Source: Antedon mediterranea
Taxonomy: Eukaryota; Animalia; Echinodermata
Reading direction: 5' to 3'
DNA: 64,000 nucleotides
Assembly (NCBI RefSeq): GCF_964355755.1
Contig: NC_092673.1
Coordinates: 26,347,648-26,411,647 of the forward strand
Below are positions 10,467 through 62,844 of the stretch, in pieces. The notes beneath the pieces are model-generated. The model searched no databases. It was not told the origin of the DNA and saw nothing but the letters and a program-made list of their open reading frames with translations. How positions within the stretch are numbered: position 1 is the stretch's first letter; the number at the start of each line of letters is the position of its first letter. The position numbers were made by a program, and so were the translations under genes.

Positions 10467-10533
10467 GTAAAACAAGTATGTTGTGGTATTTAACCTAATT
10501 GCAATCTACTGAATTTCCAAAGTTCAGTTAGGT

Positions 10534-11679: not shown

Positions 11680-11866
11680 AAGCAAGATATTTAATGACGT
11701 CATTCCAGAAAGGGGAATTCCCATTTCCAGGGCTCTTTTACTACGACGCTGAACTGGTACTGGGTACTTCATGCAGTGTATGGTAATGAGAACAAACGAG
11801 GAAAACAGGACCGCCGCCATGTTGATTCAACTTGTTCTTTTCCAATAAATTCCGAAAGGTTTTCAA
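11680..11866 (+). promoter_or_regulatory. Promoter and non-coding exon 1 of the ROCO gene: CRE + NF-kB site + YY1-like motif
   Basis: TGACGTCA 11695-11702, GGGGAATTCCC 11712-11722, CCGCCATGTT 11814-11823, donor gtatgt at 11867. The same arrangement recurs at 41071-41218. Confidence 0.7.
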
Positions 11867-12380
11867 GTATGTACAACAGTATACTTTTAACAACATTGTA
11901 ACAATTAATGTCCTTAACAATTAGGCCTGGCCCTAGGCCTAGTAGTACTAGCTAGGAGGCCTACTATACTAGAGTGCTCTAGCTAGTAACTAAATAATAG
12001 TTTAGTTTAGGGGCTAGGCCCAGCTCAGCACAATGATTTACAGTACCTCCACTGAGTACAGCTTGCTTGGTGGCCCTGGAATGTCTTGTGGTTCAACTCG
12101 TAGCCCACTCTGACACTAGGTTTAAGTTAGGTAGTAGTAGTGTATTTACTTGTATACGTACACTAATTCCAATTAGTTCAATTCATCTGTTTTTATATTC
12201 AATCTCACCTATAATTTGTCAAATTATTTATTTTACTTATAATCCATGAATGATTTAATAATCAAAATTATTATGTTTTAAAATTACAAATCACAATTTA
12301 TAACTCTCGCTTTATTAGTTGGTTTCATATTCAAGCTAGATGCTGTATAACTAAGTACTGAATACAACAATATGTTTTAG

Positions 12381-12790
12381 CGGGTGTCACGAAACCTAAG
12401 ACCACGAAAGCTAAGACCCCCTAAGACCTAAGATCACGAAAGCTAAGACCCAAGACCTAAGATTACAAATATTTATCTTTCGCACCTGCCTTGTTTTTTA
12501 ACTCCCAACATTTATTCTGAATACCACACCTTAGAATTGGCACTTTCATGAAAAAGAATCACATAAAAAGTAACAAATACATTTTTAAATTGATGATTTT
12601 ACAGACGTTTTTCTCGGACACAAAATGACTAGCCTACAGCACACTAGAGGTAGGCCTACCCCATGTTCAATGTTTTTGTTTCTATGGAACGTCAAAAGAG
12701 CAAAAATTATATAGAGGGCTGAAAACTCTGTGGAGTCCATCTACAGTGTGGATGGAACAATGTAAAATTAAAATTGTAATGATAATAGTA
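12381..12790. mobile_element. Partial copy of the MULE-like MITE found complete at 22764-23677
   Basis: Starts cgggtgtcacgaaacctaagaccacgaaagc and matches the reverse complement of 23270-23678. Confidence 0.8.
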
Positions 12791-12859
12791 TAATCATGCA
12801 AGTACGAAGAAATAAATGCTGGCAAATAAATTTTAACTTAAAAATTATGATAAGTTTTT

Positions 12860-14085: not shown

Positions 14086-15408
14086 TAATCCTCACAACAT
14101 CACAGGATTTCTTCTGATGAGGACATGTGTATTAAAATGTTGAAAGTTTGTCTTTCTAATATTAACTCTTGTTTGAGACAAATACACATGAAGTACTCAA
14201 TATTATTCTTTCATTTCATAGTTTTCATGGATGGTAATGATTTGAAATAATAAAACAAAAATATATTGTTTGCTAATTGCACATTTAATAGGTGGGATTA
14301 ATAACATATATTCTTCTCTGTGTTGGAAATCAGTAATAATCATGAATATTGTTTTTATGAATCAGGCAGGTATGAATTGCCAAGATCTACTCAAGCACTT
14401 GTATTTATAAACACTATACTTGGTGTATTACACAAAATCCTAATTTAATGCTAAAGGTGATGCATTGAGCTGTTACACAACAATACATTCTGTCTGCTCT
14501 ACTTTCCCTTTGTTCATTGGAAAATGAATAAACACAATAAATTTCTATATATACAGAAGGCAGCCATGCAAGAATGGTTGTTGAAGTCGTATGATATCGG
14601 AAATTCTGTTGTCACTTTGCATAACAATACACATCAATAGAAATGTACAGTACCACTGTTCAGAGCAGCGTTTATACTCTCGGGCCAGTGAGCGGGGAAA
14701 GGTGGCTTATAAAGGTTAATAGATTTGTTTTAAAGGAAAACCTACAAAGTATTGCCAGAATGATATTATTATTTTTACTGGAAGTTTCTAATAATTTGTA
14801 GATTAATTTCACTGTAAGTAAATACTGTTTTATACTATGTATTTAAATTACAATAATATTGCCGAAAATATCAGCTTAAATCAATATCAACTTATGATAT
14901 GGCAGTAGGCAATAATAGATTAAACATTATGTTACTAATGCCACCTAAATATAGCTTTGATAAAATCTATTTATTTATATATGTATTGTCCTCCAAAAAC
15001 ACTAATGCAAAATGAAGATTAGTAAAGACAGACATTGAATAGACCAATCACTTCCGAAAAAAAATGTTTTCACTTAAAAAAAGACAAAACAGTTAAATTT
15101 AGCCAAAAACTCATTGACTTCCAGTCAATTTTACTAATTTTTGCTTTAAAATATTGGTTTATTGTAAATTGTAATATAACGATATACTTTTATATTTAAG
15201 AAATCGACCTTTGTATCGGAATTCAAATAGGTTCACAAACTTGACCCAGAAAGTCCAGAGGAGAGTTTGTCCAGATGTTTTAATGACCATTTAGTTTATA
15301 ATAGAGTCCCTAAAGAAAACACTTAGCTTAACTTTGCGACCGTTCCCATCGTAAAACAATTAGATACTGACAGTTTTAAGCAGAGATTCGACAGGGCCAA
15401 TTCATCAT

Positions 15409-15785
15409 TGTAACCTCCCCAGATAAGATCAATCACTCCCACTTAAACACCCCTGGATCAACTTAGGACCAATCGTTACCCTCACAGATTACGTAATTGA
15501 CATATGCTAATGAACTGAGCCAATATACTCCCAAGTTTCAGAAGGGCCCAGACACACCTTACAGCCACCTCACGGAGCACACACCTTACAGCCACTTCTT
15601 CAGAAGCAGACCTACACACTTCACACCTCACCGACAGCATCAATCATTGAACGTCCGTTCCTTATCTATACTTATAGTTGTATATTGTACTGAAGTATTA
15701 TACTGAATAAACAATATATGTGTTACGACAGTCAAGCGAGTCAGAGTCCTTCATTAGTACCTCAACAACGCAACATTATATTACA
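15409..15785 (+). mobile_element. Candidate solo LTR
   Basis: TGTAA...TTACA ends, AATAAA at ~15706, GC-richer than flanks, absent from the paralogous intron at ~44460. TSD imperfect. Confidence 0.45.
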
Positions 15786-16532
15786 TTATTTTCATGTAAA
15801 TAATTTGTTTTCGATCAAAGTTTTGGTCAAAGTGCACTGTATGTGACATTAAAATGGCATATTCAACAAAAATATTCTAAAAATACAATATTTTTAATCT
15901 GATAACATTCCATAAGTAAACATTCTAAAACCGCCTAAACGTACCAAATTTGTCTGACGAGCCCAGGAACCGAGAGTTTGTCCCTGAGCCATGACGGGGC
16001 TCTTAAGTGCCCCTATGCCAAGTGGAGGAGTCTATCATGCAGTTCAGATCTTCCTGGTTGGTATTATGTACTTGCCTCAAGTATTGTAGTATGTTGTTTT
16101 TTTTTTTTACGGCTGTTGCTGTTTTGGTTATTTTTGGCTAGAAATAGTATATTTCATGGTTTAGTTTTTTTTTCAATAGACAATATTACCATAGAGCATT
16201 AATTATAAATGTATTTTTACTTTAGATAATAGATTTAATTGTGCAACAGATATGTTTCCAATAGGTTAATATTTTAGTTAGATTCAATTAAAAAACCATT
16301 TATTATTTAAGCATTTTTGTGTTTTTAAAGATTTTGTTACGTCTAATTTACTTTTACCTAGGCGATGGGTTCGATCAAGATTGCTTAGTTCAATACTGTC
16401 TGGCAGGCATAAGTAGGCAGTTTCATCGACTATAATGTTCTAGGTCATCAAGGTTTTTGCAGGGTTACGCTTTTGTAAACAGAGAGTCTAAAATATGTTA
16501 TTACTATAATAATAAACTAATAATATTACTTA

Positions 16533-16711
16533 AGCATGGTTCCCACTAGCAACGCAACGCAAGGACGTAACGCAACGCAAGTGAATTGACCAATCACAAG
16601 CGATGGCTTATTCGCTTGTGATTGCTAACTGTCTATAACTTCGCTTGTCATTGGTTAAAACGCTTGCGTTGCGTTTACGTCCTTGCGTTACGTTCTAGTG
16701 GGAACCAAGCT
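16533..16711. mobile_element. PIF/Harbinger (Tourist-like) MITE, 179 bp
   Basis: TIR AGCATGGTTCCCACTAG / CTAGTGGGAACCAAGCT with TTA TSD. The empty site tacTTAttggag is preserved in the paralog at ~45631. Confidence 0.9.
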
Positions 16712-16739
16712 TTATTGGAGATGCTGTGCAACTCAAAGT

Positions 16740-17050
16740 ACAGAATACAACAATATGTTTTAGCTTATTATTTGGTTTCATATTCAAGCTAGATGCTGTA
16801 TAACTAAGTACTGGTTTTAGCTTATTATTTGGTTTCATATTCAAGCTAGATGCTGTGTAACTAAGGACAGAATAAAACAATACATTTTAGCTTATTATTT
16901 GGTTTCATATTCAAGCTAGATGCTGTATAACTAAGTACTGGTTTTAGCTTATTATTTGGTTTCATATACAAGCTAGATGCTGTGTAACTAAGTACTGAAT
17001 ACAACAATAGGTTTTAGATTATTATTTGGTTTCATATTCAAGCTTGATGC
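16740..17050 (+). repeat. Minisatellite (~54-70-bp unit, ~5 copies), also at 45660-45890 and 12310-12380
   Basis: Unit ttagcttattatttggtttcatattcaagctagatgctgtataactaagtactg. Confidence 0.85.
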
Positions 17051-17174
17051 TTTGAAATTGTGTGAGGCCCTAGGCTGGTGAATAATGCGTGATTGATAAC
17101 CGACCTGTAGAGTACGCTGTCTATTATTACAATAGGACTAATAACAATGTTTACTGTATTGTGTCTATTAGCAC

Positions 17175-19142
17175 ATTAGTATCTATTGGCCTTCTTGGAC
17201 TTCCGAAAAGCATTTGATAGTGTTTATTGATTTCATTAAGCCGTCTCTCCATACAGTGTATGGAGAGACAGCTTAATGAAATCAATTTGGAATACAGGAA
17301 TAAGAGGAAAGGTATGGAGGATGATTGATAAGCTTTATGCTAATGTTAAAGGTAAAGTCTCCTCTGGTATAATTGATACAGATATTTTTGATATTGATCA
17401 AGGAGTAAAGCAAGGGTGCGTTTTATCACCTGTTTTATTTAGCATCTACATAAATGAGTTTACCAAAATGTTAAGATCCAAGGATATAGGTATTAGAGTA
17501 AATGATACATGGATGGGTAGCCTTTTTTGGGCTGATGATATTGTATTATTAGCTAACAATGAACTGGAAATGAAAAGAATGTTAGACCTTGCAGGAAATT
17601 TTGCTAAGGAATGGAAATTATGCTTTAATTTTGAAAAGTCAAATATACTGATAACTGGTAAACGTGTTGATAAAGTAAGACAATGGAAATTAGGTAATGG
17701 CTTTATATCTGAAACTGAATCATATAAATATCTCGGTGTACATATTTCTCGTAAATTAAATGACCATATACAAATTGAGAATGTTATAAAAAAAGGTCAA
17801 AGATTAATAGCGTACGTTAAATCAATTATCAGTAGCTTTGATAACTTTAACAGAGTATATTATGGGGATACTCTGTGGAGATCGATAGTTCTCCCATCTA
17901 TCAACTATGGTTGTTCAGTATGGTGCTCTTTAAGTAGAATAGATATAGATAAACTAGAGCGTCTCCAGCTCCAAATGGCGCGTTATATCTTAAAAGCACC
18001 TCGAAATACACCTTGTGCCGCCTTATATGGAGAGCTTGGTTGGTCTCCAATTAACGAGATTCATAACGCTCTTCGTATGAAATACTTCCATAGAATTATA
18101 AAGATGGAAAACTATCGATGGCCAAAAATTATGTTTATTGGAATGCTACAACTTAATTGTGAATTTAAAGACTTAAGGTATAAGTTTCTATCTTGTATAA
18201 ACGATATTCTCTTGAAGTGTAATTGTGAATCCAAAAATATTTTCACCACTCTCTCAAATTATAAAGAAGTCTACTTTCCAATTTCTGAAATCTTAAGAAA
18301 ACTTAACTATATAATATAGATGAATGGAGAATTGAATTACAAAATAAATCAAGTCTCCACATCTATGAAACATTAAAATCAAAACCTGGACTTGAAAATT
18401 ACTTAATTGATAAAACTAATTTTGAAGGTGCTGCATTAAAATTTAAAGCTCGTTCAAATACTCTACCTTTGAATGATAGAACTGCAAATTGGAATATTGA
18501 TAATAATAAAAAATGTAAATTGTGCGGTACAAATTCGGACGAAGACATCCATCATTTCATCCTTAATTGTCCAGCTTTAAATAATATACGTAATCAGGAA
18601 TTATTTAATTTATATGTGGATATGTATAGAAATGGCAGCAAAGATATGTTTGATACTTTTTATACTTCTCATGAAAATGACAAACTTAAATATATTTTGG
18701 GATACTCAGATAATTTAATTGATGAAGAGTGTGAAAATATTTTGGATAGTTTTTGTAAAAGATACCTAAAACAAGCATGGAAATTTCGAAATGATTCACT
18801 GAATTCCATGACTCAATAACTATGTTATCTACATTGCTACATTAAGTAAATTGAAAAAAAAAGTGGGGGGGGGGGGGGGGGGGGTTCGTAATAAGCTGTG
18901 TTTATCAGTTGATTTTATTTTATTTCATACACTTGTATTCATTGTGTAAAGTAATGATCTACTGTATGTATCGATGTAAGTTGGGGGGGGGGGGGGGGTA
19001 GGATAGGGGTTGATAGTTAGTTGCTTTTGCCTTTTTTTTACTTTTCTGTTAATTGTTATATTTTATATTGTGAAGGATGCACCTTTGTGCTAAGTGTGCC
19101 ACCGATCTAAAGGTGTAATTCCAAATAAATAAATAAATAAAT
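17175..19142 (+). mobile_element. 5'-truncated LINE (RTEX-like): RT, C-terminal CCHC and (TAAA)n tail
   Basis: FLDFRKAFDSV, GVKQGCVLSPVLF, WADD, YKYLG, GELGW, CKLC...EDIHHFILNC; stop at 18319; tail aaataaataaataaataaa at 19123-19142. Absent from the paralogous intron at ~46015. Confidence 0.9.
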
Positions 19143-20541
19143 AGCATAACCTGGTTTCAGTTTCTTTATAGAAATGATTGAATATGAATTAACGCAGAGC
19201 TAAATTTTCGATTAAATAGCATAGCACGCATGACTGATTTTGTAACTAACAGAACGCAGTAAAAAGGGTGTTGGCACTTTGCATAACAATAAGCATATTA
19301 TAGGCAACGCAAGTCTATTGATGTATAGTAGCGTTATGTGCTAGGCCAGGTAAAAAATCAAGATGGCTTTAGACTAAACTTACTTCATTTATTTTATTTA
19401 TTCAATTTCCAGGTATACAGACAACAACATTAACAAACGAAGTGTGGATGGAGTACCCTGTGGATTGCCAACAGTGAAAGCACTATCAAAGTGGCTCTCC
19501 AATAAACATAGTAAACCTACTGTATGAGGCATTCCATATTTACTCTTTCAGGAAATATTTGATATACGATAGATTCAATAAAGGATGTAAGTTGATAAAA
19601 AATGTTTATTTTCAGAATCATAAGCTGGCTAAGCATTATTTTTTTGATAGAAAAATATATCTTGATCTCTCTAAAATGAGGCAGGAAGATTGGAAAAATG
19701 TGTTATTCTACTCAATTTTTGATTTAAAATCACTATTGTGAGGTATTTGATAAATAGGCAAACTGCCTTAAAATAACTTGACATGTTTCGAGAAACTATT
19801 CTCATCATCAGAACAGAAAACAACGCCTAGAGTACTTATATACCAATAGGACAGGTTTGTAAATGAGGAAGTAATAACTAGCATGATAAAAAACACAGGA
19901 ACGTGAACAACAACCTGTCCTATGTATATAAGTACTCGGGGTTGTTTTCTGTTCTGATGATGAGAATAGTTTGTCAAGATACATGATTTATCTACCCAAT
20001 TTCAATTAAAAAGCAGATAACAAAAAGCTTAATAGTCTAATTACTGTATATATAATATAAGTATTCGCAGTTATATATCAGTACACCAACCCATCAGTTT
20101 TCAACATTCCTACCTACCACAGTTTAATATATTGTTCTCCAAGCTGTTAACCTAATTGTTTTTTATATAAGCATGATTCTGAAAGTGTTTATTCAATGCA
20201 GCTTATTTTTAATTGGTGTATCTCATTATAACTTTGTTTTGTTTTATTTTGACTTAATTTGTGCTACTTAGTTTTGTTATTTTTGTATTTTATAAGTAAT
20301 GATGGAGTAAGAGCAGTTTTCTGTTTGGGCTCATGCCTATTACTTGCTCCTGGCAAGATGAATTGTAAAATGTATTTTATGAACTTTTGCCGAATAAATA
20401 TTATTATTATTATTATTATTGATATTTTAATTTATCAAACACTTAGAAATGCCAGTTATAAAATATGTTTTTGTCTTATTTAATTAAGGCGATAATAGAA
20501 AGAACTTCTGTATAATATGAATTCCATCTTTTTATTTTTAG

Positions 20542-20571
20542 AACTTCAGTGTAAACCAATACAAAAATAAG
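20542..20571 (+). other. 30-nt non-coding exon 2 of the ROCO gene
   Basis: ttttag|aacttcagtgtaaaccaatacaaaaataag|gtaagt; identical exon at 47050-47079. Confidence 0.7.
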
Positions 20572-21086
20572 GTAAGTTGTAAAGTCTATTTTAACCATAT
20601 TAAATGAATGTTGCTTTTAGTTGTAGTTTTAATTATTTTGAGAATAGAAGGAAGTCTGTGTTTAGACTGATAAGTAATTAATGTTTTATTCCCAGTACAA
20701 ATATTCCATTAATTATGTATTATTAGTTACATATTTCTATTGTAATGTAGATATGCATACATTTACACACGTTTGACCATATAATAAATATGATGACAAT
20801 AAGTACTACATATAAGTGACACAGAGAGCTGTTTTACATTCTATAAAGCTCTCAAACTAACAAAACTTTAAATGGAAATCAGTTATTTCATTAATACCAA
20901 CAATAACTTTTTAGAGAAATCATTGATATGTTTAATATTGTATAATTCAACTTTTCAACTTTATCAAATATTTAAATTCCTATAATAAATCATTGATTGA
21001 TAATTTATAAGTGCTGCATGTAATGGAAACGTAATCATTATTAAATTATAGGTGTTTTAATTTATTTGTATATATTATACTAGAAA

Positions 21087-21684
21087 ATGGAAGAATTGGC
21101 AGAACTCCTTGCAAGTTTAAGTCAGAGATATAAAGGTGAGAACCGTTCGTGGCTAAGACTTCTGCTGAATAACCACTGCTCTGGAATGGTATTAAGTAGA
21201 GATGATGTCTCAGCATTTGACTGGTTTAATGAACTTGAAAGCATAGGTTATATTAATCATAACCCTACTGATGTAGAAATTCTGTTAGACATCGCTAAAG
21301 TAACTGAGAAGAAGAAAGCGATAGATTTAATAGAACAGTTTAAAGTGAAGCATCCAAACAATGAAGGGTACAACTTTACCAAGGGCAAACCAATAACAGA
21401 ATATCGCAAAAGACTTTATACAGCATTACGACAAAATACAACAAATTTACCAAGCATGCTTGCCCATTACAGCCTTAGTGATCACAACTTTGCCACAATT
21501 TGGGACTTTGTATTCTTTCTGGAGGTGGAAAAACAACTGGTGGATGAAGAGCAGTCAATGAAAAAGTTTGCAAAACTTCTTGACAAAAATGCCAGTGGTA
21601 TTTTTTTGGGGATAGAAGATAAGAAGTTAACGAGACCAATTGCTGATAAAGCATCTGATAAAAAGATCAGATTTATGAATGAGG
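21087..21684 (+). CDS. ROCO exon: tandem DED module 1
   Basis: SAFDWFNELESIGYI...DVEILLDIA; second DED begins ITEYRKRLYTAL...TIWDFVFFLE, resembling the caspase-8/cFLIP tandem-DED pattern. Phase-1 donor at 21685. Confidence 0.75.
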
Positions 21685-44095: not shown

Positions 44096-44169
44096 CACAT
44101 AATTGCGTTCATTACTGAAATAGGATTTAAAAGGATAAAATATCCATGTGACGGAGATGAAACCCGTAA

Positions 44170-47079: not shown

Positions 47080-47333
47080 GTATTATTATTATTATCATTA
47101 TGTATGTATTAGCTTCCCTACAATTTGTCACGTTTTGTAAAAATAATACATATATATTACTTTAAAAACATTAAACCATGTCATTCCTTGTCTTAAATGT
47201 ACGTTTTATGGTAAATTATGATAAAAAGTGAGAAACAATGCACTACCTAAGTAGCTCGCGGCGATCGACCTCTCGTGGACGGTCTTAGGCTAGCCTAGCT
47301 AGGCTTAGTTTTGTAGGCCTAGCTGGTAAACAT

Positions 47334-49407: not shown

Positions 49408-50164
49408 GGTAAACATCGGTAACGTACGAACATCGTACGCTAGCTATATACCTAGCCTGACGTTGTATAGTTGCTGCATTAATTGTCTTTCTATTTTTGA
49501 TGTACGAATCACTAAATTTACAATTTGCATGTATTGGTAGGCGGCATAATTATTACACATATTAAAGTACACACAAAACAAAAACTACCATATTACATAA
49601 TAAAATGGTTGAGTCAATTCCACAATGTATCATTTGTTTCACGTTTCGTGAATGGTAGAATATAACAATAAAGATACGGACTAAATAACTCGTGTTACTC
49701 GGTAGCCATATTTATTCAGATCAAGACATAGCGCCCTCAGTCGGGGCACGATACTGTGACATCCTTCCTTTTTTATAATAAGTTACGGTGTGCGCTTTTA
49801 TGAATTTTTTTTTTATATACTTATTTGTTATTTAGTGTGATGAATATATTAAAATATAGTATATCAATTAGTATCAGTGTTACTGTTTAGACTTCATATC
49901 TCTTGTGAGTGAATTATTATAAATACAGTATTATCATGAGTAACTTTAACACGACTTTAACTTCTTTAACATAACATTTAACTTTAACTTCTTTATTGAT
50001 TAACTGTTGTGACCTCCTGCTGTTCAGTTGGTATTGTTGCATTATCATCTGCTGTTTCCATTGGTGTGTAGAGTTGAGTTGTATCAGGGGGTGATTCAGG
50101 TGTTTTCCTAATATGAACTCTGTTTCAACAGGTACCTGTTGGTGTGTCTATCTCATATGATCTT

Positions 50165-52696
50165 TCATCTAGTCTTTTTACAACTACTCCTTTTTTGCCA
50201 TTCTTTTTGACCTAATCGGTGTGGTTTTAGTCTTACCGTATCACCTTCAACCAGTTCTGGTAGGTCATGTGCATGTTTATTGTATTTAGATACTTGTTTC
50301 TCCTTGTTGGCTTTTATCTGTAGCTTGTCCAACTGTAGATACTCTTTTCCTCTGGGTGTTAGTAATGTGTCAGTCATTGGTAACATTGATCTTCTGCGTC
50401 TGTTGAAAAGTCTCTGTGTAGGACTAGTTCCTGTTCCTTGAGTAGGTGTGTTTCGAACTTCAAGTAATGCCATATATGGGTCAGTTTTGCTTTTCTTACA
50501 CTTCATCAACATAGTCTTTGCTGCTTTTACAGCTGCCTCTGCCTTACCATTAGCATTAGGATGATGTGGAGATGAGGTTTGATGTTGGAAATCCCAATTT
50601 GCACTGAAGTTTCTGAACTCTTGACTTGCAAATTGGGGGCCGTTATCCGAAATAACAATTTCAGGAATCCCGTTTCTCGCAAAGTGTTGCTTTACTTTCT
50701 TTATGACTGATTTAGTTGTTGTTTCAGTTAGTTTGTCAACTTCCCAAAATCCACTGTAGTAGTCCACTGTGGTCATGTAATCTACCTTATCAAGTGTGAA
50801 TAGGTCAATTCCAACTTTGTGGTAAGGATATTTGGCTTCAATAGGAATCATAGTTTCCTTTGTCTGTGCCTGTTGATATGTTTGACAAGCATCGCACATT
50901 TGTGTCATTTGTTTTATTTCATATGACATTCCGGGCCAAAAAATACATTCCCTTGCTCTTCTCAGCATACTATCTCCTCCAAGGTGGGAAACATGCAGAC
51001 GTTCCTTTATTGATTTTCGTGATGAGATAGGTACTACTACTCGTTCACCTTTGAATATAAGTCCATCATGCACTGCCAGTTCATCTCTGAATGAATAATA
51101 AGGCATAATCTGCGTTGGTACAAACTGTTTTTCATCTGGCCATCCTTGCATAATTATGGATTTCAGTATTTTTGTAGTTTCATCCATGTTTGTTTCTCTT
51201 TTAAGTTCATCAATTCGCTCTGGGCCAATACAAAGACCACCAACTGCATTTACTTGATCAAATTTGTCTACCTTGTCAGTATTTGGTAGATATGCCCTAG
51301 ATAAAGTGTCAGCGATATACATTTCTTTGCCTCTTGTGTATACGATCTTTGTATCGTACTGTAACAGTCTCATCAGCATGCCTTGCAGTCGCTTTGGAGC
51401 TTTGTGTAAAGGCTTTCTCACAATCATTTCAAGAGGTTTGTGATCACTGTTGATAATAGTCAAACGTCCAAATGTATACTGATGAAATCTCTCCATTGCA
51501 AAAACAATTGCGAGGCACTCCTTCTCTATTTGAGCATATCTTACTTCTGTAGCTGATAGAGATCTGCTAGCGTATGCAATTGGCTTTCCTTCTTGTAATA
51601 AAGCTGCTCCAAGTCCTGTGCTTGAGGCGTCACATTGTACTATTAACTCCTTCTTTGGATCATAATAGACTAGAATAGGAGTTTTAGTGATTAGTTGTTT
51701 CAAATTAAGCATTGCTTTATCTTGGTCATCTGACCAGTGCCACTGACAATCTTGATGAGTCAGTCGACGAAGTGGTTCAACAACAGTTGCTAGCTGAGGT
51801 AGGAACTTTGCTAGGTAATTTGTTAATCCTAGCATTCTACGAACACCTTCAACATCTGTTGGATTATCCATTTTGAGGATTGCTTCTAGCTTTTTCACGT
51901 CAGGTTTTAATCCATTAGCAGTTATGGTATGTCCCATGAAATCAATTGTGTCAGTATGAAATACACTCTTCTCTTTATTTAGTTGTATTCCAGCTTTCTG
52001 ACATTTTTCAAAAAGGTTTCTCAAACTTTTGTCATGTTTTTCAGTTGTATTACCATAGACAAGTATGTCATCTGCTACGCATGCTACTCCTTCTAACCCT
52101 GTCAATGATTCATTTAACTTCCTTTGGAAAATTTCTGAGCTCACTTTCAAACCAAAGGGTAATCTATTCCAGCGAAATCTTCCAAACGGACAGATGAACG
52201 TAGTCAGACGGCTGCTGTTTTCGTCCAATTCACAGTGCCAGTATCCATGTGACAGATCATAATCAACCTTGCTAAATACCTTTGCATTGGCTAGTTCTGG
52301 TAGAATATCCTCCATGGTTGGTAGTGGATATCTCTCACGCTGCAGAACTTCATTCAGCGGTCTCGGATCTACGCATATTCTTAGTTTACCATTTTTTTTG
52401 GTTTGTATAGATATCTGTAAACACCAGTCTGTTGGTTCAGATACTGGCGTTATAACACCTTCTGTTAGTAGTTTGTCTAGTTCCTCTTTTAACTTGGGCT
52501 TCACGGATATAGGTACTCTTCGAGCTGGACATTGCGTTCCTTTTGAGTGCTCGGCAATCTTTATACAAACTTTTCCTGGTAGATGTCCCAGTTTACCATT
52601 AAAAACTGTTTTGTAGTCTTCAAGGATCTTGGATGTTGTCTGTGTGACACTATGTAATTGCTTGAAGTTACTGTAGTTTACCGTGATCAGTTTCAT
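50165..52696 (-). CDS. pol: Gypsy pol: RT, RNase H, integrase
   Basis: LRICVDPRPLN, LPFGL, VADD, CDAS, ELAV...HVSHLG...CDAC, GIDLF, SDNG, AEAAV. Separated from gag/PR by an extra A in an A7 run near 52696-52702. Confidence 0.92.
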   Translation of the reverse strand: MKLITVNYSNFKQLHSVTQTTSKILEDYKTVFNGKLGHLPGKVCIKIAEHSKGTQCPARRVPISVKPKLKEELDKLLTEGVITPVSEPTDWCLQISIQTKKNGKLRICVDPRPLNEVLQRERYPLPTMEDILPELANAKVFSKVDYDLSHGYWHCELDENSSRLTTFICPFGRFRWNRLPFGLKVSSEIFQRKLNESLTGLEGVACVADDILVYGNTTEKHDKSLRNLFEKCQKAGIQLNKEKSVFHTDTIDFMGHTITANGLKPDVKKLEAILKMDNPTDVEGVRRMLGLTNYLAKFLPQLATVVEPLRRLTHQDCQWHWSDDQDKAMLNLKQLITKTPILVYYDPKKELIVQCDASSTGLGAALLQEGKPIAYASRSLSATEVRYAQIEKECLAIVFAMERFHQYTFGRLTIINSDHKPLEMIVRKPLHKAPKRLQGMLMRLLQYDTKIVYTRGKEMYIADTLSRAYLPNTDKVDKFDQVNAVGGLCIGPERIDELKRETNMDETTKILKSIIMQGWPDEKQFVPTQIMPYYSFRDELAVHDGLIFKGERVVVPISSRKSIKERLHVSHLGGDSMLRRARECIFWPGMSYEIKQMTQMCDACQTYQQAQTKETMIPIEAKYPYHKVGIDLFTLDKVDYMTTVDYYSGFWEVDKLTETTTKSVIKKVKQHFARNGIPEIVISDNGPQFASQEFRNFSANWDFQHQTSSPHHPNANGKAEAAVKAAKTMLMKCKKSKTDPYMALLEVRNTPTQGTGTSPTQRLFNRRRRSMLPMTDTLLTPRGKEYLQLDKLQIKANKEKQVSKYNKHAHDLPELVEGDTVRLKPHRLGQKEWQKRSSCKKTR

Positions 52697-53428
52697 TTTT
52701 TTCTGCTGTCTCTCTGCTTAATAGTGGTTGTAAATCTTGTTTGACAATTTGAAAATCAACTGTATATGACTTGTTTGTGGCGTCATTTTTAAGCGTTAGC
52801 ACACATTTTCCTAATGGGATGACTTTGCTCTTGTTATACATTGTTAACTTTGTGTGTGATTGTTCAATTTTGGTACTACCTAGTTCAACATATTTTACTG
52901 GTATCACGTTTACAGTAGCTCCGCTGTCCACTTGGAATTGTATTTTACTTCCATCATTCATGGTCATTTCCGCATATATTGGTCCTGTTGAAACATTGTA
53001 AATTTTGTCTTCAGTTACACTCAATGTACTATCATCTGAATCTTGTGCTTCAACACCATATAGCTTGGGTTTCCGTTTGCATACAATAGCGAAATGGTTC
53101 ATTAATTTGCATTTGTTGCACCGTTTACCCCAGGCAGGGCACATTTCTTTCTTTCTTGGGTGGCTGTTTCTACAATATTTGCATTTAGGCATGTTGCCAG
53201 ACGGTGCTCTGTCACTAGTTTTATGTTTTCCTGATGACTGAGGGGTTTCATGTTTCTGCTTATGTCCACCTATGTTCATCACTTTATGAACTTCTTCTTC
53301 CTCCAATGATTTACCAGAAATCACTTTCATTTGGTTGTATGTGTTTTCATAGCTGTGGCAGATGTCAATACATTTCTTTAAATCTATTTTTCTTTCTTGG
53401 AATAGTCGTTTTCTTACTCTTTCATCAT
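52668..53428 (-). CDS. Gypsy gag C-terminus (two zinc knuckles) and aspartic protease
   Basis: CKYCRNSHPRKKEMC, CNKCKLMNHFAIVC, FQVDSGATVNVI. Confidence 0.88.
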
Positions 53429-54991
53429 CTGGGGCGGATCCAGAGGGGGGGTCCACGGGGTCCGGACCCCCCCTAAATTTTAAGGGTGCCCTTTTTTTAG
53501 AGGTTCAATATTTTATTCGTGTGACATATTTGTGTGTATATTAGTATGCACAGAGTAGGCTACACTAACCCCAAAAATAAAAACAGAAATTTATCACAAT
53601 GAGCGCGATGTTAAGTTACGGCGGCCGATCAAAGAGCATCGTGAGAGGTGGTGACGCGTGATGATCTCTACTTAAACTTCTAAAAATAGATCGTTTCACA
53701 TACTACAGAGGGCGCATGTAAACTTTTTACGATTCAACTCCGCGTACGTTACAATGCGCGCTATGTCATTGACGCGATTATTTGTCCATTGGTAAACACA
53801 TTTTTATGTATTATTATTCTGAAACTAATTGAACTGTAAACATAATTCTTTTGAGTATTTGTTTATTTACATATCATTCTATCAGATCAACTATTTTTTA
53901 TTTCCATTACATCCAACCAAACATGTAAAAAATGTAGTTAAAATATCGTACTATCTAGCGCGTACGACCATACGCGGTAGATTGTTTACTCAAAAATCAT
54001 CGATACACTATTCAACCTTGGTCTTGTAGTTGAGCCTCTCATGACCTGGGATTTGTTTGTCTTCCTACGCCAAGATAATATAGTTCTACAAGCCATGTGC
54101 TTTTTTCTCTGAGAAATATTTATTATAAGTGCAAAAAAATGTTTTTTTCTCGATATGAAGCCTTTATTATTCAAATCTTTTAAAGAAAAATCACACATAC
54201 CATAAAGAAGGTTCATTTATTTCATTTTTGAAACAATATTTGTGAAAATTACGTGAGGCTCAACTACAAAACCACCATTTTGTGATATGATGTCATCGTG
54301 AGCTCACGATTGAATGATTTTGGATTCTGGCTATTTGATTGGTGGACGCGAATTACCCACAGCGGAATGTTTTCTCTCGCGTGTACCAAGAAGTCACGTG
54401 ATCTCTCTGTACTGAACGGTACTACACAAATTTAGAGAAATGGATTTGTACGAATTCCGTTAAATAAACAACTCTATATATTTTATAAACATTTAATAAC
54501 ATATTTTATTGATATTTCCAATGTTGATATATAAAAGAAATTACTATAAAACGTAATTATATGTAATTATTTTAGCGAAAAATGGCGCAATTTGTTTACA
54601 ACGTTCGTGGCTAAAAACGATCATTTTCGGCAATGTTTTAGACCCTATATTTCGAAAACTACAAGTCAGATTTTCGTAATTCTTTCTTTATTGGAATATT
54701 GAAACAAAATACCAACAGATAATGTTTAAATTGGTTGAAAAATAACAACTTTTAATTTTGCATCGTTATCCCTGCTAATAAAGTGTCATTTCCGGCGAAC
54801 TAGAAAGGTGCCATTTATCATGGATTTTGCGTGCGAGGGTGCCATTTCCGGCCATCTAAGTGTGTCCTGTAACAAAATTCGCTTCGCCACAACCCCCACC
54901 ATGGGGGGGGCTGTGGCTCAAATACTCAATATCTGATGTGCCCTTTTTATCGGCGGACCCCCCCTCTCAAAAATGTCTGGATCCGCCCCAG
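53429..54991. mobile_element. Non-autonomous DNA transposon nested in Gypsy gag
   Basis: TIR CTGGGGCGGATCCAG / CTGGATCCGCCCCAG with flanking ATCAT duplication. Removing it restores gag ...LVLGVHDERVRKRLFQE. Confidence 0.9.
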
Positions 54992-55519
54992 ATCATGTAC
55001 TCCCAGTACTAAACGATCTCGAATTAGACTATCTTTCATGCAATCACAGAAATTACAGGTTTTTCTGAGTATTTTCAAAGCATTTATATATGTGTCAATT
55101 GACTCGCCTTTTTCTTGTTTTCGGGAATTGAATTTATATCGTTCAAAAATTTCATTGGTTTCACCAAGAATAAACGTATCCAATTTTTGTATGATTTCCT
55201 CACACGTGTCAGATTCTAGTGGGTCACATCCATTATATATTTGGAGTGCATCAACACCCATGGTAGAGATCAGTAATGATTTCTTAAAATGAGGTGATCG
55301 TGATGGATGATCTAGGTTGCTAGCAATGGTATAATGTGTCCAAAGCTGCTTCCATAATTTCCAATTTTCCTGTTTACCATTTATGTCTAGTTTTACCGGT
55401 TCTGGGGGTTTAACATTGAACATCGGGACAGGCATTTGTATCGTCGGCAGTCCGTTGCCGTTAGCTTCATCCTGCAGGCCATGTGCGTCATTTTGCACGC
55501 CCTCCTCGCCGTCTGCCAT
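54992..55519 (-). CDS. gag: Gypsy gag N-terminus
   Basis: ENWKLWKQLW...ERYKFNSRKQEKGESIDTYI...LIRDRLVLG. Confidence 0.88.
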
Positions 55520-56068
55520 GCTGGCTAGGCTGGTCGTATCTATCTCGTGAGATTTAACAGTAAATATCTTACTTTACTTATCTGTGTTTCAGTGTGCAAT
55601 TCAGACTAATCTTTTCTTGCAATGAGCACCGCTGCCGCCATGTTTCACGTTTCGTGAATGGTAGAATATAACAATAAAGATACGGACTAAATAACTCGTG
55701 TTACTCGGTAGCCATATTTATTCAGATCAAGACATAGCGCCCTCAGTCGGGGCACGATACTGTGACATCATTAAATTTGCAATTTGTGAATATTGCATGT
55801 GTTGGTAGCATAATTATTACACACAAATACACATGTTTCAATAAAAAGAACCCAAATATTTACAACCTAGCAAACTAGCCTGAAGAGTAATTAAAATATA
55901 CTTGTACAGTAATAGCTCAGATAAAAGCATTTATATAGTATCAGCTCAGCATTGTCAGAAATAAATAAGATATTCTCCCCATTTATTTTTGTTTAACTCA
56001 TAAACAATCCTTATTGTATACAATTTAATTAACTGTAATCGCTTAATATAAAACATATTTACATATCA

Positions 56069-56392: not shown

Positions 56393-56429
56393 ATGAGAAT
56401 ATTGAAAAATAAAATAGCTGTTCAATTAT

Positions 56430-58254: not shown

Positions 58255-58325
58255 GATATCTGAGTTTTCTAGATCTAGAAAAGTCAGATATCTGAGTTTT
58301 CTAGATCTAGAAAACTCAGATATAT
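58255..58325. repeat. Two tandem copies of a ~32-36-bp palindrome
   Basis: atatctgagttttctagatctagaaaa(g/c)tcagatat occurs twice, overlapping. Confidence 0.85.
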
Positions 58326-59089
58326 CTGAGATTCCTGTAGCATTTATTTTAGTTAAATGAATAAAAAAAAATAGTTCGTCATGCAAGACTGATTAAAGAA
58401 GTCATGTGACACATAGAAGGTGGCAAAATTCTAAGGTGTTGGCACTTTGCATAACAAAAACACCTTGCATTGTAATCAAGTTGAAGTCTTTGGTAGAGCA
58501 GCCTTGTCATGCTAGAAGGTTCATTGATTACTGGCCCTATTTGGAAATTGGACCGTTGCCAATAATATGAATTATATACTTGCGCAGGTAGTTTTTAATA
58601 TACTATAGAATCTGAGTGAAGTTAATAGATTTCCGTAGTCATTTTATTGATGGACTGAGATAAGGCAGTATAAAATAAACTTTGTTTACACCTCCATGGT
58701 TGACTATTATAGTTAACAATACAACAACACCAAAACCTTCCGAAACAGGAAACAATACAAATAATAGTTCCGAGAGGTATTGGTATAGCTTATTTCTTAA
58801 TACTGGGCCTAGCTTGGAGAAAGAATTTAATAGTTCCATAAGATAAGAGAAATTGCTTAAAACAGTTATACACATTTACATAGTTTTAGTAAATTGGAAA
58901 AAAAGTCTCACCCCAAGATTTTGAATTGGTTGAAGTTTGTTGGTATTGCTACTGGATAGAGACTGGGTGACAGAATTTTAAGTGGCAACAGGTCTAGAAA
59001 CGTACTGCTACTATTACCATAAATAGCGTAATTTATTAATGTTTCAGTGTAAAAATGTATACAGATACTATTTGTTATTTTTCAGGAAA

Positions 59090-62000
59090 ATGGCATCTCT
59101 TGAAAGGAATGATGAGTTTGACGACTTGAAGGCTGAACTTGGTAAACACTACAAAGGTGAAAAGTATGATATGTTGAAATTCTGCCTATTGAATATCCTA
59201 CCTCACGGAGATATTAAACAAAACTTTATAGCGAACGATATATTTAATGTACTTGAAAAAAAGGGTGTTATCTCAGCTGATAATGTTTGCTTTCTCCTCG
59301 AGATTTCTAAACTGTCTAATCAAAGGAAAGCTATGGATCTTGTAAGAAACTATATGAAAGATAACAATCTTATAAATTCAGGTACGCAAAAGTTTTCATC
59401 ATACCGAAAAAGATTGTTCAAGGCTTTACAGGAAGTTAGAGAAGATACATTAGATAGGATAATTTCTCGCTATGATCTGAGAGACCTTGCCGATAATTTA
59501 CCAAATATTTGGGCGGTTGTTTGTTATCTGGAAAGAGAGTTACGTTTAGAAGATAAACCTGATAAAATAAAGCGGTTTTCAAAACTTCTTCCGGAACAAG
59601 CAAGAAAAATAATACTTGATGGTAATTACAATGAATTCTGATAATTTATATTGAAGTTTTAATAATAACTGTAATATTGTGGGTCATTAGGCATGTTCAT
59701 ATTAAGATATGATGATCTATTATCATGATACGTTTAGCACGATAAAGAGAAACTGTTCACATAGAAATCATATCACGATCTCTTTTATGGTAATGGTATT
59801 AAGTTACATAATAGCTGAGAGCCAATAATGTTGCGCGCAATACTAACTCTAACGCTGATTGGTTGATTCTATCTTGTGAATTAATTAATCACATTAAACT
59901 AGGTCAGTCATGTTTCTCCTTCATGCTCAACAGATCACATTAAGCTGATTAAGCTGATCACGTTTTTTGATAAATAGGTTCACATAAAATTACATCGTAA
60001 TCAATGGTGAATGTGAACCCATATTGAAAAGGAAAAAATAGGCTTTTTCTTGTAGAAATTTATTATTTCTATAGTTTTAAATAAAAACTTTTACTGTAGC
60101 TTTTAATGATCCAATGAGAATTAATAAATTCCTAGACTTGAAATTGGCCTGGAATATATTCCCCTGTCAGTTTAGCATTTCTCTTGTTTTATTAGATGAG
60201 TCAAAAGATCAAGTAAAGAAACCAAGAAAATAAAAAAAGAGACAATAAATCCTTTATTTTAATTCCAATACTGACCTATATACCAAACAAATTACTTATT
60301 ATTCTCTAGAGTTATTATCTGAAGGCTAATAAAAGCAAAATAATTATTAAGAGTAAACTCTGATCAATTTAATGAAGATAATAACTGAGATTGAAGAAAT
60401 GAAAACTAAAGTTATACTGTTCACAGACAATTTAACAATTAAAAAATGTTGTTATTTTTTATATATACCTATTAATTAAAATTTGATTTATTTGATAGAG
60501 ACAACATTAAAAGACTATGTAAGAGAAATGTTTTTACAGAAAAAATGTTTTGTGAAAACAGATTCTGAGAAATCACCGAAAGAAATGGAACTAATTAAAG
60601 GTACGTAAAGAAGTATTTAATGTAAGATTTGTTGTTAATATTTAGAGTAATGTTTCATTTCATTTATTTGACCCAAAAAAAAGCAACCTAGACCACTATG
60701 ACTCGATGACGGTCAGTAATTCCTTTATACAAAATAAAATAGTTTTAATCTTGTTCATATTTTGCTTTTTATTAATAAAATAATATTTAGTTTACAGAAT
60801 ATAATTATGAATTCTATACATCTACAAATGCACTTTAAGAAGTGTGTGTTTATATTTTTTAAACCTATAATACAGTTGTGCAAATTTTATAGTTTTTGTT
60901 TCTTTTACATTTTAAAATTCTTGTACATTCATTTATGCTGTGTATATCTTAAGCAATAAAGAAACATAAAAGTTGACATGAATCCGGTAAATATATATTA
61001 AATTGCTGCAAACCCATTGTCTGGTTTAATTTAAATTTTTTTTTTCAGGTATTGATGACAGTGAATCCTCAACCTCACATCAACAGCTACCAAGTCGAGA
61101 TACAATGACCGATGAACATGCTGTAGATGAGATATGTAACTCTGTAAGGAGATTTTGCACTTACATGAGATGTGGTGAGAGCTTAAAAACAGACCAGGAT
61201 GTCATAAAGATGATAAGTAGTCTTAATCAGGAAGAAGAAAAATGGAAACATAGGTATAGATGGAAATGGATTCAACTGGAATCATCAGAAGACATTGGTA
61301 GAATGCTAGCTCATGTTTTGATTACTGTAAAAGATGAAAAGTATATGTTATTTAAAATCAGTGAATCATGTACTGATGATGTGGTAAAAGGATTATCTAC
61401 TGAATGTAGTAAATACATGTTTAAATATAGTATTGAAGGTTTTTCTTGGGTTGAGTCTCATATTTATATTTCTACATCATTTTTACTCCACTTTTTGATT
61501 AATGCACCAAGACTTCAATACCTTAATTTAAGTGAAACATATGCTAATATGAATGATATTGTTAGTGTACTATCGCAGAAATGTTTAGTGTTGGCATTAG
61601 ATAATCTCAATATCGGTTTTAATAAACTCAATGATATCACAGGTTCTTCACTCGGCACATTACTGGCTATTTCTCCTAAACTGAAAACACTTGACATGTA
61701 CAACTGCAGTCTGTCAGGTGTTTTCATAGATGCTATGGTGAAGGAATGTGTCAATAGGAACCTAGTGTTGGAATTAAATAATCTTAATATCAGTGGGAAT
61801 ATTCTCAGTAATATCAAAGGTTCTGTACTTGGCACATTACTGGCTATTTCTCCTAAACTGAAAACACTTAAATTGCACTACTGCAATCTATCAGGTGTTA
61901 TCATAGATGCTATGGCCAGGGAATGTGTCAATAGGAACCTAGTGTTGGAATTAGATAATCTTGATATCAGTGAGAATAATCTTGGTGATATCGCAGCTTC

Positions 62001-62844
62001 TTCACTAGGCACATTACTGGCTATTTCTCCTAAACTGAAAACACTTTACATATACAGCTGCAGTCTGTCAGGTGTTATCATAGATGCTATGTTTAGGGAA
62101 TGTGTCAATAGGAACTTAGTGTTGGAATTAGATAATCTTAATATCAGTGTGAATACACTCAGTGATATCACAGGTTCTGTACTTGGCACATTACTGGCTA
62201 TTTCTCCTAAACTGAAAACACTTAACATGCTCTACTGTAATCTGTCAGGTGTTATCATAGATACTATGGTGAAGGAATGTGTCAATAGGAACGTAGTGTT
62301 GGAATTAGATAATCTTGATATCCATGGTAATAATCTCAGTGATATCACAGGTTCTGTACTTGGCACATTACTGGCTATTTCTCCTAAACTGAAAACACTT
62401 AACATGAGCAAATGCCATCTGTCAGGTGTAATCATAGATGCTATCGTGAGGGAATGTGTCAATAGGAACCTAGTGTTGGAATTAAATAATCTTAAGATAA
62501 GTAAGAATGTTCTCATTGATATCACAGGTTCTATACTTGGCACATTACTGGCTATTTCTCCTAAACTGAAAACACTTAAAATGTACAATTGCAGTCTGTC
62601 AGGTGTTATCATAGATGCTATGGTGAGGGAATGTGTCAATAGGAACCTAGTGTTGAAATTAGATCATCTTGAAATCCGCAGGAATAATCTCACTGATATC
62701 ACAGGTTCTTCACTAACCACATTACTGACTATTTCTCCTAAACTGAGAAAGTTTGGTATGCGTAAGTGTAAATTACCTAATGATATAGTGCAGGATATGA
62801 GGCAACACTTTCAGAGTATAAATGGTAAATTTTCCTATCAATAA
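59090..62844 (+). CDS. Tandem-DED + ribonuclease-inhibitor-type LRR protein (NLR-like but lacking NACHT), ~810 aa
   Basis: Exons 59090-59621 (tDED: MLKFCL...IFNVLEKKGVISADNVCFLLEI...SSYRKRLFKAL), 60499(or 60562)-60600 (linker) and 61049-62844 (LRR), all joined in phase 1. Seven 59-aa (177-nt) two-LRR units. Confidence 0.8.
61590..62780 (+). repeat. Intragenic 177-nt tandem repeat (x7) encoding alternating A/B LRRs
   Basis: ctggctatttctcctaaactgaaaacactt recurs every 177 nt (e.g. 61681, 61858). Confidence 0.95.

Follow-up and report, generated by a model that had tools for sequence, protein, structure and literature searches.

Two adjoining plus-strand genes in a 64,000-nucleotide stretch of the Antedon mediterranea genome (the window) share a tandem-DED (tDED) module and carry different bodies: a Roc-COR GTPase in gene A and an LRR array in gene B. 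The interpretation that we favor, with somewhat better than even confidence, is that gene B encodes an NLR-derived receptor that has lost NACHT, that gene A encodes an LRR-less tDED-Roc-COR scaffold, and that both belong to a family-wide DED network and are not a one-to-one pair. The exon chains, folds, NLR origin, single loss of NACHT, diversification of the concave LRR face and family sizes are established by the observations set out below; features are located in Table 1.

Gene A comprises 25 coding exons (21087-38244, all GT-AG) that join into 4032 nt without internal stops and specify 1343 residues in the order tDED-tDED-Roc-COR-tDED. The RefSeq protein P0005 (861 aa, Antedon mediterranea) is an exact suffix of this model, starting downstream of the first two modules, M1 and M2; it scores above Pfam cut-offs for Roc (48.1; cut-off 27) and COR-A (44.7 bits; cut-off 35.3), and PDB matches are Roc-COR and LRRK2 Roc chains. 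The P-loop and G3 motifs are intact and common to paralogs. The canonical G4 motif is NKxD; the corresponding position reads THKG throughout the family, and nucleotide handling is presumed from these motifs. Judged by domain content (Roc then COR, with intact P-loop and G3), gene A is a ROCO, and no LRR was found in it, as the preliminary description had proposed. Upstream lies a pseudo-exon of the NLR-type tDED family, which tblastn with P0011/P0003 recovers only as three pieces in frames 2, 1 and 3, and whose HMM matches are split over two frames.

Gene B comprises three coding exons (59090-59621, 60499-60600 and 61049-62844; 2430 nt, no internal stops) encoding 809 residues in the order tDED-linker-LRR, without NACHT. 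Again a RefSeq protein, P0192 (622 aa, Antedon mediterranea), is an exact suffix of the model; it begins at an internal Met and omits the tDED, and the residues preceding that Met are conserved with paralogs. Both chains are open and anchored by RefSeq suffixes, which upholds the description of two neighboring genes. A search of 2828 six-frame pieces of the window revealed no NACHT (best E 0.19), ruling out an exon of this kind hidden there, and none occurs in P0192; an LRR gene without an NTPase is therefore confirmed. Between the tDED and linker exons lies a dead homolog of a paralog exon, having an in-frame stop at 60231, an intact acceptor, and a matching end that lacks GT; it is of phase 1-1, so that skipping it preserves the frame. 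Intron 2 holds a 6.1-kb LTR element (LTRs 99.2% identical, 5-base target duplication) among further insertions. Neither the dead exon nor this element figured in the preliminary description. Equating the linker exon with the pre-NACHT helix of NLRs was dropped, HMM support being nil in both directions. ARAGORN found no tRNA.

Table 1. Positions of features assigned to the two genes and their surroundings
Feature	Position	Strand	Basis or remark
Frameshifted tandem-DED pseudo-exon, NLR-type (tDED_c) family, 5' of gene A	9968..10457	+	tblastn, HMM
Gene A promoter island, TGACGTCA and kB consensus	11679..11724	+	
Gene A non-coding exon 1, 3' end; donor 11867	11830..11866	+	sequence; X5 contig ends
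Gene A intron-1 block with 30-nt exon 2 (20542-20571)	14472..20574	+	collinear with gene B 44181-47082
Gene A first coding exon, tandem DED M1; ATG 21087	21084..21684	+	open, phase-consistent; not in P0005
Gene A 56-nt exon preceding M2	21865-21920	+	
Gene A tandem DED M2	25032..25560	+	not in P0005
Gene A four phase-1 micro-exons (24, 48, 48, 48 nt), duplicated linker	25657..27404	+	
Gene A Roc GTPase exons; P-loop GQEAVGKT, G3 WDHGG, GTHKG	27705..32135	+	
Gene A COR domain exons	31884..36092	+	Pfam COR-A on P0005
Gene A C-terminal tandem DED M3 (37483-38004) and terminal stop exon (38237-38244)	37483..38244	+	identical to P0005 end
Gene B promoter island, TGACGTCA and kB consensus	41059..41100	+	
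Gene B predicted exon 1 donor	41218	+	exon end read by eye
Gene B intron-1 block with 30-nt exon 2 (47050-47079)	44181..47082	+	
Young LTR retrotransposon in gene B intron 2	49635..55772	-	RT/RNase H/integrase
Gene B first coding exon, tandem DED M4; ATG 59090	59086..59621	+	not in P0192
Gene B dead linker exon	60196..~60240	+	by-eye comparison with P0009/P0040/P0189
Gene B linker exon, 102 nt, phase 1-1	60499..60600	+	conserved across NACHT-less clade
Gene B last exon, seven 59-aa units of two LRRs each following a helical cap	61049..62844	+	

The tDED module of about 175 residues occurs in four intact copies (at 21087, 25041, 37494 and 59090), those of gene A being 35-45% identical to that of gene B. 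Pfam DED scores fall below the cut-off (best 31.8 versus 35.9); the predicted fold of the gene B module, M4 (pLDDT 90.3), has as its top Foldseek matches exclusively caspase-8/cFLIP tDEDs (TM 0.67-0.75, with caspase-8 at 0.70-0.75), and on this modeled structure the module is two DED folds in tandem of the caspase-8/cFLIP type, bearing out the shared module first described. Most DED exons end in phase 1. The presence of M1, M2 and M4 in protein is predicted from reading-frame continuity and from paralogs; for M4 these include P0041, P0009 and P0069, whose models have a tDED. The proposal that gene A carries six DEDs stands as far as its three open, phase-matched tDED exons; P0005 omits the first two and no RNA joint to them was seen. 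In a tree of the modules, M1 is sister to module 1 of P0001 (100/98), M2 to module 2 of P0001 (98/83), and M3 to the module of a ROCO on another record, which marks gene A as a chimera. No sister relationship between the tDEDs of genes A and B was found, M4 being sister to none of M1-M3. A predicted complex of M3 with M4, computed without alignments, scored 0.00 and gives no answer either way.

The body of gene B has a separate ancestry. The closest relatives of its last exon are crinoid tDED-NACHT-LRR proteins, its helical cap is homologous to their post-NACHT region, and its best fold match is ribonuclease inhibitor. In a tree excluding LRR-only fragments without cap, P0073 with its partial NACHT, isoforms P0061/P0189 and distant matches, a 100/98 branch sets apart 11 NACHT-less rows from two genera, including five from Antedon and five from Anneissia, and places them within 35 NLR rows; a second tree, omitting rows with cap scores under 35, separates 12 from 13 rows at 100/100. 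RefSeq models P0192, P0040, P0041/P0189, P0009 and P0069 join the linker to the cap and lack NACHT, and the Anneissia members of the clade bear TIR or Ig domains or have no detected N-terminal domain. From these sequence relationships, the LRR of gene B descends from NACHT NLRs, and NACHT was lost once in its subfamily. The notion that it represents the LRR that a ROCO lacks was accordingly rejected, and our best reading of the clade is an old NACHT-deleted NLR subfamily within a shuffled tDED network. The repeated domain of P0001, P0002, P0009, P0059 and P0069 is presumably "TRADD-N-like" from motif likeness; Pfam returned no such match for it.

Hypervariability of the gene B LRR, claimed previously, is real and located on the concave strands. 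Across six internal units, eight concave columns have accumulated no fewer than 25.5 non-synonymous changes over 19.8 sites, compared with 13 synonymous changes on 42.2 sites for the units overall (p about 4e-6, a rough value because repeats within one gene, subject to conversion, are not independent); dN/dS in the remaining columns is about 0.7. With its NLR-derived LRR and diversifying concave face, the gene B product looks like a ligand sensor, in keeping with the role originally suggested.

Similarity of the two 5' regions is less extensive than the preliminary description held. The 30-nt sequence of exon 2 is the same in both genes, and intron 1 is collinear over its 3' part (68-94%), interrupted in gene A by a LINE-type RT (17240-18819); promoter likeness is confined to a 46-base island (83%, E 2e-7) comprising TGACGTCA, presumably CRE-type by its consensus, and a neighboring motif, presumably a kB site, with regulatory function predicted accordingly. 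Outside the island, exon 1 and its flanks cannot be aligned. The combined element has two matches in the window and none in 100 shuffles. The genes lie in tandem on the same strand, not head-to-head, with separate promoters 29 kb apart.

RNA joints were taken from run X5; contigs of runs X1-X4 cross introns and behave as DNA. No GT-AG joint of gene A stood among the 15 of about 410 X5 joints listed, which has no bearing on expression, and no joint bearing gene B's own bases was seen in X5. One X5 contig with paralog-type bases contains the GT-AG joint 60600>61049, passing directly from linker to LRR exon over the site of NACHT; an intervening NACHT exon, which had been named as something to look for, thus appears neither in the window nor in this paralog transcript. 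Two X5 contigs have loose ends matching 11830-11859 and continue into a B-type tDED exon at its 59086 start, a start common to at least three paralogs (P0009, P0010 and P0040), and all three contigs covering 59152 carry a base also found in paralogs. Because the A-type exon 1 is also joined to B-type tDED exons, the 5' module appears to be family-wide. Summed read depths suggest many paralogs, and are not copy numbers.

Among 25 Roc-COR relatives of gene A, none has an LRR, 16 have a tDED and four a Death domain; 16 lie clustered with each other on one 36.19-Mb record (chromosome). In this family a death-fold Roc-COR protein without LRR is the rule, and such proteins are frequent in molluscs and sponges. 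Of 12 tDED proteins found, 11 map to that same record, with bodies including ubiquitin, RING/B-box-NHL (TRIM), Roc-COR, NACHT, LRR or no other domain. The view that genes A and B are halves of a split ROCO/NLR, as had been envisaged, is not supported. With accession numbers, and not the genome, as the guide to gene order, one of 14 ROCO accessions lay near a NACHT-less gene, so that by this proxy the anticipated recurrence of tDED-ROCO beside tDED-LRR was not seen. The accession of P0001, the closest paralog of the 5' half of gene A and a ubiquitin fusion, adjoins that of the NACHT-less LRR gene P0041; a block of a tDED-tDED gene and a NACHT-less LRR gene may therefore recur with another effector.

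These distributions bear on the original model, in which gene B is a dedicated sensor docking through its DEDs on gene A as switch. Adjacency, the shared CRE+kB element, the recently shared intron-1/exon-2 block, complementary bodies with homologous tDEDs, and the possible second block all speak for it. We nevertheless consider it improbable, given the non-recurrence by accession, the ubiquitin fusion in place of Roc-COR in that second block, the separate affinity of M4, the entry of A-type exon 1 into B-type exons, and a tandem arrangement with separate promoters that differs from plant pairs (PMC9528088, in part). The two genes likely became neighbors as exons were shuffled and stretches duplicated locally within an immune cluster of tandem-DED genes. 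The two contigs that run from 11830-11859 into the 59086 start raise another idea, a single transcription unit with A and B as its alternative bodies, in which exon 1 of A would be spliced across the entire Roc-COR gene to the tDED exon of B, or the last tDED exon of A (ending at 38004 in phase 1, matching the B acceptors) to its LRR exon; the paralog-carried base in every informative contig, the exon start shared among paralogs, the promoter island of gene B itself, and RefSeq termination of A at 38244 make this very improbable.

Two other alternatives concern gene B itself. B-type proteins might be inhibitors or decoys, capping DED filaments of full NLRs in cFLIP-like fashion or absorbing effectors aimed at NLR LRRs; the missing switch domain, a kB-type site that would suit a feedback inhibitor, variable or absent N-terminal domains across the clade, and the fold match to an LRR-only protein that is homologous to NLR LRRs and dampens inflammasomes (PMC8922048, in part) agree with this. 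Diversification of the concave face fits a changing foreign ligand better, although an effector decoy would diversify too, and we regard inhibition as unlikely, if a serious contender. Alternatively, this copy may be decaying, or yield LRR-only or tDED-only products from unjoined exons: besides the dead exon and the intron-2 insertions, P0192 begins internally, models P0040, P0009 and P0010 treat the greater part of the corresponding tDED exon as intron, and a joint with the gene's own sequence was not seen in X5. The open, phase-matched exons, conserved residues before the P0192 Met, intact promoter island, and skippable dead exon make this rather unlikely.

Under the network interpretation, members of the NACHT-deleted subfamily likely bind pathogens as receptors in the cytosol, and gene A belongs to a large set of tDED-Roc-COR GTPases without LRRs that likely serve as DED scaffolds, roles that we infer from sequence. 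Co-induction and DED co-assembly are plausible because both genes have caspase-8-like tDEDs and the same CRE+kB element. Infection would induce the tDED family through that element, with the N-terminal tDED exons included in both mRNAs; a ligand on the variable concave face would cluster B, and because B lacks an ATPase needing relief, the clustering would in itself gather its tandem DEDs, seeding or capping DED filaments. Partners could be any tandem-DED proteins at hand: complete NLRs, Roc-COR proteins (A among them), TRIM and ubiquitin fusions, or DED caspases. Roc-COR dimerization would allow A to present two to six DEDs in a GTP-dependent manner, and the output may be cell death or NF-kB. 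A bolder version, which we think rather unlikely, would place the switch in trans, with NACHT-deleted receptors plugging via tDEDs into the LRR-less Roc-COR expansion as a GTPase-gated, family-to-family "split NLR" network. Loss of the NTPase before two crinoid genera split, in a multi-copy group with a diversifying ligand face, suggests that some intracellular receptors can do without a NACHT switch, and the clade is a natural setting in which to ask whether clustering by ligand is enough to drive DED signaling. The presence of at least 16 tDED-Roc-COR genes without LRR on that chromosome provides a tractable route to invertebrate ROCO GTPase function.

A published description of either crinoid family was not found in the literature searched (subscription journals and supplements lay outside the search), and both, including the NACHT-deleted NLR subfamily, appear undescribed. 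Echinoderm DED/death-fold-NACHT-LRR NLRs (sea urchin, holothurian; crinoid P0010 and P0012) share with gene B, in its predicted form, an N-terminal death-fold, and further a ribonuclease-inhibitor-type LRR, post-NACHT cap and lineage-specific expansion (PMC8913654, in part), whereas B and its clade lack NACHT; that survey starts from a NACHT HMM, and such surveys miss this clade because it has none. The ribonuclease inhibitor RNH1 likewise forms a horseshoe of two-LRR units, without NTPase and homologous to NLR LRRs (PMC8922048, in part), but is a single, LRR-only gene, while B is part of a multigene family and adds a predicted tandem DED, an NLR cap and a concave face that diversifies. ROCO proteins (LRRK2, DAPK1, CtRoco) share the Roc-COR tandem of gene A with P-loop and DxxG; in contrast to these and to mollusc, sea-anemone and brown-algal immune candidates, A lacks LRR and kinase, and tandem DEDs replace Death/CARD/TIR. 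Roc-COR-Death/CARD clusters exist in molluscs and sponges, Roc-COR fusions to death-fold or TIR domains are described from Aplysia and actiniarians (PMC9334734, PMC5094078, each in part), and in brown algae the ROCO proteins themselves contain diversifying LRRs, in cis (PMC11378527, in part). Plant pairs (RRS1/RPS4, RGA4/RGA5, Pik-1/Pik-2) resemble A and B as adjoining immune genes with a shared regulatory element; both members of such pairs are NLRs, generally arranged head-to-head with promoter sequence in common and co-dependent one-to-one (PMC9528088, in part), whereas A and B, unlike the analogy drawn earlier, have no STAND NTPase (NACHT or NB-ARC), lie in tandem with distant promoters, and form a pairing that shows no recurrence by the accession proxy. 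A further parallel is found in the lineage-specific DED/TRADD-N expansions of oyster, amphioxus and sponge, in which a constant death-fold adaptor is shuffled onto variable bodies (repeats or effectors), in sponge including LRRs without NTPase (PMC8195603, in part); the portion of that source consulted does not mention a NACHT-deleted NLR clade, and the crinoid set differs in using tandem DEDs and Roc-COR bodies.

What endures from this locus is the finding of an NLR subfamily that is old, has a deleted NACHT and shows a diversifying LRR face. It lies within a cluster of tandem death-effector-domain (tDED) exon shuffling that also holds an expansion of LRR-less Roc-COR genes. In this AT-rich animal DNA, splice sites were checked by coordinate and by translation of the joined exons, giving two models free of internal stops: gene A (tDED-tDED-Roc-COR-tDED; 25 coding exons, all GT-AG, 1343 aa) and gene B (tDED-linker-LRR; three coding exons, 809 aa). 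Two Antedon mediterranea RefSeq proteins, here designated P0005 (XP_071946835.1; 861 aa, Roc-COR-tDED) and P0192 (622 aa, named LRRC31-like), are exact suffixes of models A and B, respectively. Each begins at an internal Met and is missing the N-terminal tDEDs (482 and 187 aa). Because the residues immediately upstream of that Met are in open frame and kept in paralogs, the sequence argues for coding exons upstream of the RefSeq starts. RNA joints for the N-terminal tDED exons of genes A and B themselves were not seen. The observation in the preliminary description is partly confirmed, and its interpretation partly supported.

Four intact modules of ~175 aa were identified (M1, M2 and M3 in gene A, M4 in gene B), at 35-45% to the gene B module in alignment. 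Pfam DED scores fall under the cut-off (best 31.8 of 35.9 bits); the AlphaFold model of the gene B module (pLDDT 90.3) matches the tandem DEDs of caspase-8 and cFLIP (TM 0.67-0.75 in the top nine rows). A profile search of proteins of 311-2000 aa (7994 candidates scored) gave 12 matches: 11 are Antedon proteins, all encoded on a single 36.19-Mb record, and the twelfth is from Anneissia japonica. Because these proteins carry such varied bodies (ubiquitin in one, RING/B-box-NHL in two, death folds only in four, Roc-COR in two, LRR without NACHT in one and NACHT-LRR in two), the module behaves as an adaptor exon that is mobile. A tree built from 28 modules pairs M1 and M2 each with one module of P0001, which is the paralog closest to the 5' half of gene A (100/98, 98/83). 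It places M3 beside a ROCO from a different record (100/100) and gives M4 no sister with support; gene A is accordingly a chimera, and the gene B tDED did not arise by local copying from gene A. RefSeq models of the database proteins P0040, P0009 and P0010 start like the tDED exon of gene B and splice out after 17-22 codons, suggesting that the B-type exon is broken in them.

The LRR of gene B is built of seven 59-aa units, each containing two LRRs, and is modelled as a 16-strand horseshoe (pLDDT 85) whose best fold matches are ribonuclease inhibitor and NLRP14/NLRP9. Its proposed hypervariability was borne out: eight exposed concave-strand columns, chosen from motif geometry before variability was seen, have a pN of 0.51, a value that none of 100000 random sets of eight columns reached. 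Over the six internal units, non-synonymous changes in these columns number at least 25.5 on 19.8 sites, whereas synonymous changes in all columns together number 13 on 42.2 sites (p 4e-6, a rough value, as repeats within one gene are not independent); dN/dS is about 0.7 in the other LRR columns of these units, and the same concave columns are variable in paralogs. This is the pattern of a surface that binds ligand and evolves under diversifying selection.

Gene B was also correctly described as lacking an NTPase, in that 2828 pieces from all frames of the window contained no NACHT (best E 0.19). With E 0.001 as the limit, its last exon matched 391 representatives; among the 58 annotated from the 150 listed, close relatives are crinoid-type tDED-NACHT-LRR proteins and a NACHT-less set. 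Some 120 residues ahead of its repeats align to the post-NACHT region of the crinoid tDED-NACHT-LRR NLRs. In a tree built on the cap (the helical region before the repeats) and first repeats, whose root is approximate, the selected outgroup itself not being a single clade, a branch with 100/98 support, lying inside a set of 35 NLR rows, separates off 11 NACHT-less rows: P0192, P0040, P0041, P0009 and P0069 from Antedon, P0193, P0194, P0190, P0050 and P0059 from Anneissia, and P0051. A second tree of 25 rows recovers this split at 100/100. Because a short linker exon immediately precedes the cap in all 11, the absence of NACHT is not mere model truncation. N-termini across the clade vary (two kinds of tDED, TIR, Ig I-set, or none); the TIR of P0059 (27.7 of 28 bits) and Ig I-set of P0050 and P0190 occur in RefSeq models, and could be real fusions or joined models. 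One contig assembled from X5, a run guessed to be RNA and from a second sample, carries the GT-AG joint 60600>61049 with bases of a paralog; at the level of the subfamily, though not for gene B itself, the NACHT-less layout thus has support from a transcript.

Gene B might instead yield an LRR-only or tDED-only product, since it shows signs of decay: another linker exon, one that paralogs use, is dead in gene B, with a stop at 60231 and no GT at the matching end, and intron 2 contains a 6.1-kb LTR element with ends 99.2% identical. Skipping of the dead exon leaves the frame intact, so gene B may be intact.

Gene A has Roc and COR-A above Pfam cut-offs, and its solved relatives are Roc-COR chains and LRRK2 Roc chains. 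A search with its Roc-COR part (7998 candidates scored) gave 25 proteins of 473-1507 aa, 21 from Antedon (16 on the 36.19-Mb record) and four from Anneissia; tDEDs occur in 16, Death domains in four, and LRRs in none. P0015 has tDEDs on both sides of Roc-COR, and the Anneissia proteins P0030 and P0032 likewise have Roc-COR-tDED. Mollusc and sponge clusters in the ESM Atlas combine Roc-COR with Death or CARD, and the available portions of PMC9334734 and PMC5094078 report TIR/Death ROCOs from Aplysia and sea anemones. ROCOs of this kind thus normally have no LRR, and its absence from gene A is no reason to postulate a neighbouring partner.

A dedicated sensor/switch pair of A and B, as first proposed, is very improbable. 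When gene order is approximated by the numbering of RefSeq accessions, only one of 14 Roc-COR accessions, gene A itself, lies within ten numbers of any of the four NACHT-less genes with accessions seen, the remainder clustering among themselves; by this approximation, tDED-ROCO beside tDED-LRR does not recur. In favour of a pair, the accession of P0001 adjoins that of NACHT-less P0041, and duplication may have affected a two-gene block made up of a tDED-tDED gene and a NACHT-less LRR gene; the body there, however, is a ubiquitin fusion. A switch acting in trans at the family level, though somewhat less improbable, is also unlikely. Because P0040, the closest paralog of gene B, lies two accession numbers from gene A, a tandem copy of gene B is suggested just downstream.

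The 5' regions, described as paralogous from promoter to exon 2, are so in part. Between the genes, collinearity (68-94%) extends over the 30-nt exon 2 and the 3' portion of intron 1, whereas the promoters align only over a 46-base island (83%). The combination of TGACGTCA with a kB consensus after it is present at 11695 and 41071 but in none of 100 shuffles. The shared intron-1/exon-2 block is younger, a product of duplication or conversion, and part of the intron-1 similarity may be dispersed repeat of a three-copy non-coding segment. Two X5 contigs join sequence equal to exon 1 of gene A to a B-type tDED exon; as three paralogs have that exon start in common and the contigs show a paralog-type base there, it is simplest to suppose that other genes of the family also use this type of exon 1, long-range splicing onto the tDED exon of gene B being a minor alternative. 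The kB sites at 7223-8130 may mark where a third gene of the family, now decayed, had its promoter, and a ~76-base repeat, in one to two copies at one site and a tandem array at the other, hints that a segmental duplication bounds the A-B block.

Coordinates of features in the window
Feature	Position	Strand	Remarks
C2H2 zinc-finger protein	2-3553	-	one long open frame, 1184 aa, extends past window start
Non-coding segment, three copies	5342-6198, 15808-16509, 44461-45630		78-87% identical
kB-consensus sites	7223, 7949, 8008, 8121		upstream of frameshifted tDED exon
Near-consensus kB site	8061		read by eye
LINE-type reverse transcriptase fragment	9083-9661	-
Frameshifted (pseudo-)tDED exon	9968-10457
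~76-base repeat and flank	10531-10897, 63367-64000		3' of pseudo-tDED exon and of gene B
Gene A exon 1, part equal to X5 contig sequence	11830-11859	+
LINE-type reverse transcriptase fragment	17240-18819	+
Gene A, ATG to stop	21087-38244	+
48-nt micro-exon with its introns	26017-27428		recent tandem duplication, three copies, 81-86%; lengthens gene A linker in frame
Young LTR retrotransposon	49635-55772	-	near-identical ends, 5-base target duplication, inside gene B intron 2
Broken retroelement fragment	56400-57900	-	GC-rich (52%), RT-like frame; presumably DIRS-like, from its look
Gene B coding exons	59090-59621, 60499-60600, 61049-62844	+

In literature on crinoid and echinoderm NLR, DED and ROCO proteins we found no paper on these crinoid families; supplements, such as the architecture tables of PMC8195603, could list some. 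As to the analogy drawn to plant sensor/helper pairs, those pairs, in the available part of PMC9528088, are two NLRs, as a rule head-to-head, and A and B have neither feature. The crinoid set does share a general theme with systems described, in the part of PMC8195603 available, from oyster, amphioxus and sponge, in which death-fold adaptors are shuffled onto variable bodies.
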